From IMG/VR virus record IMGVR_UViG_3300012984_000442, positions 1 to 10,239 of that record: 10,239 nucleotides of DNA. The stretch is one strand, 5' to 3'. The translations under genes and the position numbers were made by a program. The notes under the pieces are model-generated. The model ran no database searches. It was not told where the DNA came from and saw nothing but the letters and a program-made list of their open reading frames with translations. Source of the DNA: a virus. Of this stretch, positions 2 through 3,689 are shown piece after piece; positions within the stretch are counted from its first letter, which is position 1, and each line of letters begins with the position of its first letter.

Positions 2-1699
2 TTCCCACGTGAAGAACATGCCATCATCAAGTACGGTGAGCAGGACGTTCACTACGGGATCGCGATCCCGAGCGGTGACACCCGCTACGTGCTCGATCGA
101 AACACTGGCGTCATCAGCGTGGTTAAAGGTCCCCAGATCTTTCTCGCTGATCCCCGTTCACAGGTCATCGCCCAACGTGCGTTGCCCCTGAACCTCTGCG
201 AGTTGCTCTATCCAGGTAACGCTGAGGCCTTGGAGGTCAACGCTCAGCGCCTTGGCCTAGATGAACAGGACATCATGGGGGTCGGTGGTGCCAACGCGGC
301 ATTCCTGAACTCCACGTACACCCGTAACGTCGGTGAGGACGAGAACTACGGCGCCGTCGCCGCAGTCGCCACGCCTGAAGGCCACCGTCGAGGCTTCACC
401 ATCAAGGGATCGAGCAAGTCGCTCCCGGGCGAGGCGTTCGATCGCAAGAACAAGTTCACGGCTCCTCGCACCGTGATCCTGAACACCAAGTACGATGGTG
501 CGGTGCAGACCACGTTGTGGACGGGTTACGCGATGCTCCTCGTCAACAAGACGGGAACTCGTCGGGTCGTCCAAGGACCGGGAACCTTCACTCTCGAGTA
601 CGATGAGTCACCGCAGGTGCTCTCCTTGTCGACTGGCAAGCCGAAGAACACCGATTCCATGTATCGCACCGTCTTCCTCAAGACGAAGGCAAACATGGTC
701 AGCGACGTCATCGCCGTCGAGACGAAGGACTTCTGCCATCTCAACGTCAAGGTGAGCTATCGCGTCAACTTCGAAGGCGATGATCCGAACTCATGGTTCA
801 ACGTCGACAACTACGTCAAGTTCCTGTGTGACCACATGCGCTCCAAGGTCCGCGCCGCCGTGCAGAAGTTCGGCATCGAGGAATTCTACGGCAACCACGC
901 AGACATCTTGCGTGACATCGTCCTCGGCAAGGCGGTCAAGGGCGAGACTCGCCCCGGGCAGGTGTTCGTAGAGAACGGCATGCGTATCTACGACGTCGAG
1001 GTCCTCGGCGTCCAGATGCAGAACGCTGACGTCGAGAAGCTCCTCGTCAACGCCCAACGTGAGGTCATTCAGAACACCCTCGTCCTGGCCACCGAGCGTC
1101 GCAAGCTCGACTACGTGAAAGAAAACGAGCTCATCAAGCGTGAGATCACCACAGCCAACGCAGAGACCCGCCGCCTGGCGATGGAGCTGCAAGGCGAAGA
1201 GGTCCTGCGCAAGCAGGTCCTCGACCTGACGGTCATCACGTCCGCTGCCAAGACCGACGCTGAGCGTCTGTCCGCTGATCGAGCCTCACAAGAAGCCCGA
1301 GCAGCAAACGAACTGCAGGCAGAGAAGGACGCAGCGGCTGCAGCTGCTGTCAAGCTCGAAGCTCAGAAGGCGATCGACGCACAGAAGCTCGAGACCCAAA
1401 AGGCAGTCCTGGAACTCGAGCTCTCCAAGCTCGCAGCCCAGACCGACAGCCTCACCAAGAAGGCGGCTGCGGTGTCACCTGACCTGATCGCAGCGTTGCA
1501 GGCCTTCGGCGACAAGGCGCTTCTCGAGAAGATGTCAGAATCGATGGGACCGCTTGCCATCCTCGGAGGCAAGAGCGTCTCGGACGTCCTGAAGGGTCTG
1601 GTCGAACACACGCCACTGGCGAAACACCTCGAGGCTCTCTCGGCCCCGAGCAACGGAGCGTCTGCTTCGGTTGCCAAGGGACGTAACGCCAACGCCTGA
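2..1699 (+). CDS. Major vault protein (MVP) homolog, C-terminal ~566 aa; 5' end lies upstream of window
   Basis: The reading frame is open from nt 2 (no stop before the GTG at 89 listed in the ORF track) to TGA 1697-1699. The translation aligns by eye to rat/human MVP. [20 protein letters not shown] matches MVP [57 protein letters not shown] matches [38 protein letters not shown] (shoulder/SPFH-like domain). A long Ala/Glu/Lys-rich coiled coil follows (cap-helix), then a Gly/Ser-rich tail (cap-ring). Upstream residues (..[23 protein letters not shown]..) look like MVP repeat domains. Confidence 0.9.
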   Translation, partial: [565 protein letters not shown]

Positions 1700-1717
1700 T
1701 CGATAGGCACGATCGTT

Positions 1718-1759
1718 GGGCCGTCCTGGAGAGATCTGGGACGGCCTTTCATCTTTTGG
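1718..1759 (+). terminator. Rho-independent terminator-like hairpin after the MVP gene
   Basis: GGCCGTCC (1719-1726) and GGACGGCC (1739-1746) form a perfect 8-bp GC-rich stem with a 12-nt loop. A T-rich tail tttcatcttttg (1747-1758) follows. It lies 19 nt after the MVP stop codon. Confidence 0.5.
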
Positions 1760-1784
1760 CTCTGATCACAATAGAAAGAAAAAC

Positions 1785-3638
1785 ATGTTAGATTTCATCG
1801 TCTCTCACCTCGCCTTAGGCGCGGTCCTGCTGGGCGTTGTCCTAGCGCTGGTCCTTCACAAGTTCGTCCTTCGGATGTTTGGCGTCGTCGTCATCCCTGA
1901 GGACAGCATCGGCATCGTGACCAAGAAGTTCGTCCTCTTCGGCGCCAACAAGTCGTTGCCTGACGGCGCGGTCGTCGCGCTCAACGGCGAGGCAGGCGTC
2001 CAAGCTGACACCCTCGCCCCTGGCGTTCACTTTTGGTTGTGGCCGTGGCAGTACAAGGTCGAGCAAGTTGGATTCGTCACCATCAACCGTGACCAGCTCG
2101 GTGTGGTAACCGCTCGAGACGGCCGCACTCCGTCAGACGGTCGCGTTCTTGGACAGTCGATCGCTTGTGATTCGTTCCAAGACGCTCGTTCTTTCTTGAC
2201 CCGAGGTGGAGAACGTGGTCCTCAAATCGCGATCATCGCTCCTGGTACGTACCGCATCAACCTGCAACTGTTCAAGGTCGAGCTAGCGAAGGTCACCGAG
2301 ATCAAGGACAATCAAGTCGGCGTCGTGACGACAAAGGAAGGCACGCCGCTCGCAACTGGTGATATCGCTGGCGAAGAGGTGGTCGGACACAACATGTTCC
2401 AGAGCGCCCAAGCGTTCGTCAACGCTGGAGGCAAGAAAGGCCTGCAGGAGCAGGTCATTCTCGCCGGTCGCTACTACATCAACCCGTTGTTCGCAACCGT
2501 CGAAGAGGTGCCGATGACAGAGGTGCCGATCGCTCACGCAGGTGTGGTCATTGCGTTCGTTGGCAAGCCGGGCGTAGACGTGACTGGTGATGCATTCAAG
2601 CACGGCAACCTCGTCGGTCGTGGTGAGAAGGGCGTCTGGGCCGAACCGCTGGATCCAGGCAAGTACCCAATCAACCCGTACACCCACAAGATCGAGGCGG
2701 TACCGACTGCAAACGTGGTACTCAACTGGGCCGACGGCAAGAACGAGGCACACAACCTCGACAAGAACCTGTGTACCATCACCGTTCGATCGAGCGACGG
2801 CTTCACCTTCAATCTCGACGTCAGCCAGATCATTCACATCCCCCGCACTGACGCCCCTCGGGTCATCGCTCGGTTCGGTAAGGTCGCCAACCTGGTGACC
2901 CAGGTGCTCGAGCCGACGATCGGCAACTACTTTCGCAACGCTGCGCAAGGTTCAGACGTCATCAAGTTCCTTGGAGAACGTCAGAAGCGCCAGGATGACG
3001 CAAAGAAAGCGATCGAGACCGCATTGACCGAGTACAACGTCGTCGCTGTCGACACCTTGATCGGTGACATCACGCCTCCCGCTGAGCTGATGAAGACGCT
3101 CACCGATCGTAAGATCGCAGAGCAAGAGCAAGAGACGTACGCTACGCAACGTCAGGCTGAAGACCAACGCAAGTTGCTCGAACAGTCACGTGCAATGGCA
3201 GCGACCCAAGCAAGGGTCGTCGACGCCGAGCGTAAGGTTACCATTGCTGAGTTCGATGCTCAGACGGCGGTGAAGAAAGCAGAAGGTGACGCCAAGTCGA
3301 AGACCATCAACGCAGAGGCAGACGCCTCGGTGCTGAAGCTCATCGGCGACGCTGAAGGCTCGAAGATCAGCGCTGTCGGTTTGGCAGAGGCGGGCGTCGT
3401 CAAGGCGAAGGCAGACGCCGTCGACCAGAAGAACTACGCAAGCATCGAGATCGCTCGAGCGCTAGCTGCCTCTGGCTTCCCGTTGGTCCCGTCGGTCGTC
3501 GCAGGTGGCAACGGCGGAACGAACGACAGTTCCTTGGTCAACGTCTTGCTAGCGACGATGCTAGAGGACAAGTACAAGACCGCGGCCCCAACCGCGCCAG
3601 CGACACTCGAGAAGGCGCCCGTCGCTTCCAAACAGTGA
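1785..3638 (+). CDS. Flotillin-like SPFH/band-7 family membrane protein (FloT/YqiK-like)
   Basis: ATG at 1785 is in frame with the TTG-started ORF at 1716. It is preferred as the start because the N-terminus then begins with a hydrophobic TM helix (MLDFIVSHLALGAVLLGVVLALVL). A large SPFH-type domain follows, then a C-terminal EA/KA-rich coiled coil typical of bacterial flotillins (..AEADASVLKLIGDAEGSKISAVGLAEAGVVKAKADAVDQKNYASIEIARALAASGFPLVP..). The stop is TGA 3636-3638. Codon usage is strongly GC3-biased, as in the MVP gene. Confidence 0.88.
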   Translation: MLDFIVSHLALGAVLLGVVLALVLHKFVLRMFGVVVIPEDSIGIVTKKFVLFGANKSLPDGAVVALNGEAGVQADTLAPGVHFWLWPWQYKVEQVGFVTINRDQLGVVTARDGRTPSDGRVLGQSIACDSFQDARSFLTRGGERGPQIAIIAPGTYRINLQLFKVELAKVTEIKDNQVGVVTTKEGTPLATGDIAGEEVVGHNMFQSAQAFVNAGGKKGLQEQVILAGRYYINPLFATVEEVPMTEVPIAHAGVVIAFVGKPGVDVTGDAFKHGNLVGRGEKGVWAEPLDPGKYPINPYTHKIEAVPTANVVLNWADGKNEAHNLDKNLCTITVRSSDGFTFNLDVSQIIHIPRTDAPRVIARFGKVANLVTQVLEPTIGNYFRNAAQGSDVIKFLGERQKRQDDAKKAIETALTEYNVVAVDTLIGDITPPAELMKTLTDRKIAEQEQETYATQRQAEDQRKLLEQSRAMAATQARVVDAERKVTIAEFDAQTAVKKAEGDAKSKTINAEADASVLKLIGDAEGSKISAVGLAEAGVVKAKADAVDQKNYASIEIARALAASGFPLVPSVVAGGNGGTNDSSLVNVLLATMLEDKYKTAAPTAPATLEKAPVASKQ

Positions 3639-3656
3639 GCTGAGGTAACACACCAC

Positions 3657-3689
3657 CATGCCGGCCCGGAATTTTCTTGGGCCGGCATG
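3657..3689. terminator. Terminator-like perfect 11-bp hairpin
   Basis: CATGCCGGCCC (3657-3667) and GGGCCGGCATG (3679-3689) form a perfect inverted repeat with an 11-nt T-rich loop (ggaattttctt). It lies 19 nt after the flotillin-like stop. There is no clean downstream U-tract (atgtcattt), so it could also be a protein-binding palindrome. Confidence 0.45.

Follow-up and report, generated by a model that had tools for sequence, protein, structure and literature searches.

What vaults do has been an open question since their discovery in the 1980s. Among SPFH assemblies the vault counts as the exception, being closed and unattached to a membrane (PMC12624060), and human vaults bind NAD+ in the SPFH domain of their major vault protein, MVP (PMC12280208). 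Bacterial MVP homologs have already been described from Myxococcota, Cytophagales and cyanobacteria (bioRxiv 10.1101/872010; PMC3762200), two phages of the human gut, ctOa11 and ct2Ri15, are reported to carry MVPs (bioRxiv 10.1101/2023.11.10.566534), and SPFH proteins of phages are known as well. The DNA analysed here, positions 1 to 10,239 of the IMG/VR virus record IMGVR_UViG_3300012984_000442 (the whole stretch of 10,239 nt, hereafter the window), carries a gene for an MVP homolog that is directly followed by a gene for a membrane-anchored SPFH protein. In the literature searched, neither an MVP–SPFH adjacency in a huge-phage lineage nor MVP-type repeats in YqiK-type SPFH proteins were found. 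The two are probably independently expressed and independently dispensable accessory genes of a soil huge phage, encoding cage-forming proteins and adjoining through one ancestral juxtaposition; an earlier note on this DNA, made from the sequence alone, had suggested a functional pairing.

The MVP homolog and its SPFH neighbour

The window was found identical in sequence to positions 8217–18455 of the fetched locus L001 by comparison of the two, and contains two large co-oriented genes followed by about 20 short ones. A spacer of 85 nt separates the large genes, and a 13-bp GC-rich hairpin lies 3′ of each. Coordinates of these features are collected in Table 1.

Table 1 Features of the MVP–SPFH pair, in window positions
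Feature	Position	Strand	Remarks
MVP-homolog gene, 3′ two-thirds	2..1699	+	Residues 334–898 of 898; open frame running off the left edge
Spacer hairpin	1718..1757 (hairpin 1718–1747)	+	13-bp stem, 8 G-C pairs, T-rich tail TTCATCTTTT; terminator-like or transcript-stabilising
SPFH protein gene, YqiK/COG2268 type	1785..3638	+	617 aa; Band_7, PHROG 200 and QmcA matches
N-terminal transmembrane helix (residues 2–31)	1788..1877	+	Hydrophobic stretch LDFIVSHLALGAVLLGVVLALVL, then HKFVLR; AlphaFold2 (AF2) helices 2–23 and 25–31
Three beta-rich repeats of ~70 residues each (residues ~75–245)	2007..2519	+	MVP-repeat-like in the predicted structure
SPFH/Band_7 domain (residues 278–459)	2616..3161	+	Pfam Band_7 (PF01145)
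Long alpha-helical, coiled-coil-like region (residues 433–562)	3081..3470	+	AF2 helices 433–494, 501–545 and 548–562; alanine/glutamate-rich
Hairpin after the SPFH stop codon	3657..3699 (hairpin 3657–3689)	+	13-bp stem, 9 G-C pairs, weak T tail

Gene 1 encodes a genuine member of the major vault protein family, with repeat domains, shoulder and long cap helix. The full gene (7219–9915 of L001) encodes 898 aa; the part within the window corresponds to the C-terminal 565 residues. These comprise the final repeats, the SPFH-fold shoulder domain, a cap helix about 147 residues long and a C-terminal tail. Pfam matches were obtained for MVP_shoulder (PF11978; E 1.5e-30, 106 bits, cutoff 25), Vault_3 (E 7.1e-8, 32.9 bits, cutoff 28.8) and, more weakly, Band_7 (1.1e-5), with the Vault model below threshold (E 0.02). 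Using phmmer against the MVP chains of the PDB, residues 520–851 were aligned to residues 478–828 of human MVP, covering shoulder and cap helix (E 1.2e-19). The AF2 model was of medium confidence overall: the shoulder and a continuous helix at residues 675–821 were modelled at a predicted local distance difference test score (pLDDT) of about 70–93 (helix alone about 71–87), and the N-terminal half was less confident (mean pLDDT 64). All of the top twelve PDB matches of this model were full-length MVP chains (Foldseek, E about 1e-22 to 2e-26), ranking above flotillin, prohibitin and HflK/C, and the R1–R7 structure of MVP was matched as well (E 8e-8). Tandem MVP repeats are present in the model N-terminal to the shoulder; their number is put, at low confidence, at about nine. 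The gene table of the 21-kb locus, to which this search was limited, held no Pfam match to TROVE or PARP as minor vault components. More than 4,500 metagenomic proteins match the MVP family, some of them on contigs of more than 300 kb and many labelled 'major vault protein' by the Joint Genome Institute (JGI), and homologs with 45–50% identity over the full length occur in 410 bacterial genomes (Myxococcota, Cytophagales, Riflebacteria, Sericytochromatia and others).

The product of gene 2 matched Pfam Band_7 with E 3.7e-28 and PHROG 200 ('lipoprotein') with 1.3e-20, and its sole sequence match in the PDB was QmcA (E 5.4e-6). Relatives carry the JGI name 'uncharacterized membrane protein YqiK'; they include bacterial chromosomal 'SPFH domain-containing/YqiK' proteins of 58–66% identity (Niveibacterium, Uliginosibacterium, Ralstonia, Steroidobacteraceae), a 70%-identical protein encoded among housekeeping genes in a bacterial metagenome-assembled genome, and many huge-phage proteins. 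Gene callers start the gene at its ATG (Table 1); an alternative TTG at 1716 lies just upstream of the spacer hairpin, and its frame reads through the hairpin. The AF2 model had a mean pLDDT of 60, but of 72–88 over the three repeats, and its best Foldseek matches in the PDB were full-length MVP chains (E 1.9e-5), then MVP R1–R7; prohibitin, erlin, HflK/C and flotillin were all placed behind MVP, the flotillin chains with E 0.36 or worse. From this model, the SPFH protein appears to have the domain order of MVP plus a membrane anchor, like a small vault protein, and a large bacterial and phage SPFH family appears to combine such an anchor with MVP-type repeats. At the level of sequence, the repeats of the two proteins gave no significant link (hhalign E 0.18) and the SPFH protein no Pfam Vault match. 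The SPFH domains are marginally alike (hhalign of whole-protein profiles, E 0.009, probability 4.6%); with this SPFH–shoulder match as the only one, a close paralogy of the two proteins was ruled out. Taken by itself, the positive-inside rule (positive residues after the helix) suggests that the bulk of the SPFH protein is cytoplasmic.

By homology, the MVP homolog would self-assemble, giving a cytoplasmic vault-like shell in the infected cell, and the SPFH protein would assemble as a ring or dome at the inner membrane, with the cytoplasmic face as the probable side, as we infer from HflK/C, QmcA, prohibitin and flotillin.

The earlier note had described an MVP homolog directly followed by an SPFH gene, and this was confirmed by Pfam and by the gene coordinates; its assignment of both products to cage-forming SPFH-fold families was supported by Pfam, phmmer and Foldseek, and its view of the genes as co-oriented and separately terminated by the hairpin after each. 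The label 'flotillin-like' is loose and too specific: at E ≤ 0.01 Pfam gives the generic Band_7 model alone, and no flotillin-specific signature was found. The matching GC content at third codon positions (GC3) of the two genes (0.76 for MVP, 0.72 for SPFH) is real and somewhat high, but lies within the local range (0.66 ± 0.07 for 51 neighbouring genes) and is not distinctive.

That both proteins alternate in one ring, in the manner of HflK/HflC, FLOT1/2, PHB1/2 and Erlin1/2, and so build a single membrane-anchored vault, is very improbable. Each protein has an SPFH-fold domain followed by a long helix, and the genes are adjacent, but the partners would be very unequal (898 versus 617 aa, about nine versus three repeats), with a continuous helix of about 147 residues facing helices of 62 and 45. 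In the established vault structure (PDB 4V60) the two halves join by their N-terminal ends; the anchor of the SPFH protein sits at the N-terminal rim, which would make waist-to-waist docking geometrically awkward. The marginal similarity of the SPFH domains, the combination of a soluble MVP with a membrane-anchored partner and the lack of strict co-occurrence all speak against a mixed ring, since known mixed SPFH cages consist of close, strictly co-occurring paralogs (PMC12624060).

In related linked loci, a spacer hairpin with a stem of 11–19 bp lies at the same place with a different sequence, and a hairpin with a stem of 12–16 bp follows the SPFH gene. As the hairpin sequences differ between lineages, it is the structure that is conserved. 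One linked locus, L149, has a longer, differently structured spacer and no comparable hairpin after the SPFH gene. Short open reading frames (ORFs) around the pair mostly abut or overlap without such hairpins, and the two large genes look like separately bounded units. The hairpins may be transcription terminators or transcript stabilisers; since each gene has its own, the two would be expressed as separate units or at levels of their own. No sigma-70-type promoters were found in 1500–4300.

Seven metagenome contigs, assembled independently, encode exactly this 617-aa SPFH protein, and the identical MVP–SPFH pair was seen on several of them. It is hardly credible that the adjacency is due to chance or artefact, be it a chimeric assembly or two unrelated captured host genes. 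Both proteins do have close bacterial relatives (MVP 45–50%, SPFH up to 70% identical), and the GC3 of both genes, slightly above that of their neighbours, is compatible with acquired 'moron'-type genes; but the arrangement is identical in several independent assemblies, diverged versions in nine further lineages exclude chimerism, and a rough estimate puts the chance of adjacency among several hundred genes at the order of 1 in 500, and still two very different MVP clades show it.

Distribution of the adjacency

Adjacency was scored in four collections, using hidden Markov models (HMMs) of each family on all ORFs of every fetched locus. MVP identities are given relative to the window, and the closest MVP clade is defined by at least 60% identity (about 22 lineages). 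Trees were calculated by neighbour-joining without support values. From the 410 bacterial MVP loci 80 were kept. Presence of an SPFH gene elsewhere in 'unlinked' phage genomes was checked by pattern-based scans and in INPHARED huge-phage genome records only.

The MVP gene is followed by the SPFH gene in the window lineage and in L048 (81%), L051 (72%), L135 (68%), L024 (67%), L013 (66%), L138 (65%; a 369-kb contig) and L136 (63%). On metagenome contigs, one of 80 MVP loci was linked (L153, 66%), and four others of the same MVP clade with downstream sequence showed no linkage. Linkage is thus present in nine of the about 22 lineages of the closest clade and in the divergent L149, giving ten linked lineages among about 180 MVP loci. 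No SPFH gene was found after MVP in L049 (77%), L050 (76%), L010 and L011 (70%), L012 (67%; a 309-kb contig) and L014–L017 (63–64%), nor in the deeper phage clades (L018–L023, LR756500, LR756501), and about 13 of the 22 closest lineages are without it downstream. None of the 80 bacterial MVP loci has an SPFH gene nearby, and no MVP was present in the bacterial contexts of the SPFH gene that were examined.

Scored from the SPFH side, 24 IMG/VR SPFH loci had MVP upstream in L024 alone; a second SPFH scan found it upstream in L138, L013, L024 and L149, and not at L139, L140 (four near-identical contigs), L142 or L143. SPFH genes of 63–76% identity occur without an adjacent MVP, the 76%-identical one adjoining a Thg1-like gene, and the other, large second phage SPFH clade had MVP in none of 23 loci. 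Huge-phage genome records (462–735 kb) carry MVP without this SPFH (LR756500, LR756501/03) or SPFH without MVP (LR756502). As a neighbour of MVP, SPFH was present in 9 of 23 loci and hence no more frequent than several small-ORF families (9–10 of 23), and by neighbour clustering no conserved third partner emerged in the 23 phage or 80 bacterial MVP loci.

In the neighbour-joining trees, linked and unlinked MVP lineages of the clade of at least 63% identity are interspersed. The SPFH tree includes eight of the nine clade-linked genes, all of which fall into one clade, so most of the linkage is inheritance; the pattern fits a single ancestral juxtaposition after which SPFH was repeatedly lost or relocated. 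Within linked pairs, MVP divergence and SPFH divergence show poor correlation (r 0.32, Mantel p ~0.1), as in L001 versus L048 (MVP 82%, SPFH 71%) and L001 versus L136 (MVP 63%, SPFH 79%); recombination therefore separates MVP and SPFH genes. Because there is no linkage in bacteria, unlinked lineages are interspersed and huge-phage records hold one gene only, an obligatory pairing is excluded; what may exist at most is a facultative one. The functional pairing proposed in the earlier note has the recurrence of the adjacency in ten diverged lineages in its favour; the genes often occur separately, however, and a conserved linkage in prokaryotic genomes, which it had brought up, fails with 0 of 80 bacterial and 1 of 80 metagenomic MVP loci.

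Several observations weigh against two genes that merely inherited their neighbourhood. The MVP of L149, with an identity of no more than about 41%, falls among the deep clades in the tree, yet an SPFH gene of 69% identity adjoins it; the remaining flank genes of L149 have no counterpart in the window locus. Since plain inherited synteny does not easily explain this, L149 hints at selection for linkage or at movement as a module. Order and orientation of the pair are the same in all ten diverged lineages. Neither protein has a signal peptide and the bulk of the SPFH protein is probably cytoplasmic, so that both probably reside in the same compartment; as modelled, they also have an unusual domain order in common, including MVP-type repeats in the SPFH protein. 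In addition, absence of SPFH elsewhere in 'unlinked' phages was judged from the scans and records named above.

Apart from the last, these points favour a cooperating module, in which the anchored MVP-like SPFH protein and the soluble MVP would act in one pathway and selection would keep their genes adjacent; for example, an SPFH dome could tether or nucleate vault-like shells at the membrane, or both could enclose the same cargo. All known hetero-oligomeric SPFH cages are, moreover, built from paired relatives (PMC12624060). Such a module is nevertheless rather unlikely: more than half of the closest MVP lineages have no SPFH downstream, the pair was never seen in bacteria, huge-phage genome records hold one gene only, the evolutionary histories of the two genes are decoupled, each gene has its own hairpin, and a third conserved partner is missing. 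Quite improbable is the more specific idea of the SPFH protein as a membrane-anchored 'half-vault', a missing intermediate between SPFH domes and the closed vault, which would work with a true MVP and provide the phage with free and tethered vault-like compartments, e.g. for sequestering host factors or small molecules.

Two separately expressed and separately dispensable accessory genes, joined once in an ancestor, are thus the reading we consider probable. The region around them is variable and rich in paralogs, and each of the two genes has close bacterial relatives; we infer that their products function independently. During infection the cages could sequester host or phage molecules, or protect or organise the membrane.

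Source element and neighbouring genes

The source element is huge-phage-like, from soil, rather than a cellular genome, because relatives occur in LR756500, LR756501/03 and LR756502 and on IMG/VR contigs of up to 369 kb. Within the phage collection, the genomes of the huge uncultured phages LR756500 (462 kb) and LR756501/03 (735 kb) contain relatives of the MVP homolog, and the closest phage relative of the SPFH protein is in LR756502 (642 kb); IMG/VR relatives lie on contigs of 300–370 kb. Dozens of short co-oriented, often overlapping ORFs surround the pair, with scattered matches to T4_Y16D, a gp23 motif and methionine aminopeptidase. No tRNA gene, long repeat or Rfam family (vault RNA among them) was found in the window. 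Neither the MVP nor the SPFH protein was matched by defence-system models (PADLOC) or NCBIfam, and PHROGs gave no match for the MVP protein or for the small ORFs tested.

By iterative HMM search, 28 of the 51 short genes (67–127 aa) of the 21-kb locus were identified as paralogs. Members of this tandem small-protein family lie in the window at 4222–4464, 4773–5132, 5129–5437, 5664–5912, 6180–6428, 7252–7500 and 7973–8314, and further members at L001 178–6890 and 19272–19589, so that the array encloses the MVP–SPFH pair. Common motifs are an N-proximal 'PGx-V', a central 'LVIA' and a C-terminal 'W-LLL..G.LGW'; the members tested had no significant Pfam match, and two members tested had none in PHROGs. 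At 9490–9855 (+), a 121-aa protein is encoded whose C-terminal ~45 residues ('...LLANQLVSVQPMTAPAGGIFYMNY') match the profile of a T4-type major head protein. The match covers only positions 60–105 of PHROG 138 (E 6.8e-9; Pfam Gp23 in the contig table), and the product is a short protein with one capsid-protein motif, no capsid gene. Related ORFs are located at 7497–7976 and 8895–9212, and similar genes in L049, L051, L135 and L136.

A 61-aa ORF at 3726–3911 (+), predicted to encode two hydrophobic helices, comes immediately after the SPFH hairpin. Downstream of SPFH in relatives no significant match to it was obtained, the best being 24% over 37 residues in L048 (E 0.5), and it is probably not a partner of the SPFH protein. 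The following 105-aa ORF (3908–4225, +) starts with 'MKLIRSKVPAIAASKGE...' and has a conserved counterpart behind the SPFH gene of L048 (7791–8108); its single Pfam match, Tri-helical, was sub-threshold (E 0.028), and its N-terminal pattern presumably resembles that of small MazG/PRA-PH-type nucleotide pyrophosphohydrolases. An AAA-ATPase gene of 408–425 aa lies directly 3′ of the SPFH gene in L024 (4557–5783) and L135 (9805–11082) and is absent in the window lineage. In Ralstonia solanacearum (L052/L053, 1–14076), an SPFH homolog of 691 aa is found amid many short unannotated genes with CagX-like and Amidase_3 matches; this region has the look of a mobile element or prophage, not of core chromosome. 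The SPFH homolog of Niveibacterium is a lone chromosomal gene.

The second, MVP-unlinked huge-phage SPFH clade has its SPFH gene amid NAD/ADP-ribose genes in 12–13 of 23 loci (e.g. L026 2983–8372, L032 3458–3931), with a NAPRTase-family gene directly upstream, a nucleoside 2-deoxyribosyltransferase-like gene directly downstream, and Pribosyltran, Macro and NADAR among the neighbours. In LR756500 (L007 12768–13547), a Macro-domain gene lies 1.2 kb downstream of MVP. No NAD/ADP-ribose genes of these kinds were found in the locus of the window. This neighbourhood could be a functional theme or plain synteny.

Comparison with vaults and other SPFH systems

Huge phages commonly carry MVP homologs: the metagenomic relatives number in the thousands, and contigs above 300 kb are among their carriers. 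One phage lineage puts MVP and an anchored SPFH protein side by side. The locus bears on the origin and function of vaults, the proposed pairing being facultative at best. If the two proteins cooperate, the phage–bacterium setting would be a compact system for asking what vault-like cages do. If they do not, two host-type cage proteins would have been recruited as phage accessory genes, and the locus would still offer a concrete candidate for how the vault may have arisen out of SPFH proteins bound to membranes. Neither phage nor host is in culture, so the practical use is limited for the time being.

Compared with eukaryotic MVP (PDB 4V60, 9BW5), the homolog is of similar length (898 aa versus about 861–893 aa) and has the same domain order. 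It differs in being phage-encoded, with no vault RNA, TEP1 or PARP seen in the locus, and in predicted low-confidence inserts at residues 158–189 and 423–494. The human NAD+ pocket found no support in the phage MVP, where R507-P508-H509 (PMC12280208) align to N-T-D.

With the gut phages ctOa11 and ct2Ri15 the locus has in common a tailed-phage MVP homolog related to bacterial MVPs. Their preprint mentions no SPFH neighbour in its neighbour check (bioRxiv 10.1101/2023.11.10.566534); here, by contrast, the MVP belongs to a huge-phage lineage from soil that has thousands of metagenomic relatives, and in part of this lineage SPFH is adjacent. Neither vaults nor SPFH proteins are mentioned in two jumbo-phage reviews. 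Other phages do encode Band_7 proteins, the SPFH/prohibitin-like genes of PHROG 200 from Vibrio phages and the Desulfovibrio phage ProddE being examples, but these are 22–26% identical and the same records hold no MVP match.

Like the paired SPFH hetero-oligomers HflK/HflC, FLOT1/FLOT2, PHB1/PHB2 and Erlin1/2 (PMC12624060), the locus encodes two SPFH-fold proteins side by side. The members of those pairs, however, are closely paralogous, alike in size, both associated with membranes and always found together, whereas the proteins here are very unequal and barely similar, one is soluble, and each is often found alone. SPFH–NfeD operons (yqiJK, qmcA–ybbJ) differ in their partner, as the locus gene tables contain no NfeD match. 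The SPFH protein itself is of the YqiK/COG2268 type, with QmcA–YbbJ (8Z5G), HflK/C (7VHP), prohibitin (9O9Z) and flotillin (9L3G) as solved relatives. It is set apart from these by about 240 residues of predicted MVP-type beta repeats between anchor and SPFH domain, and among the solved SPFH proteins that were matched, MVP alone aligned over such repeats.

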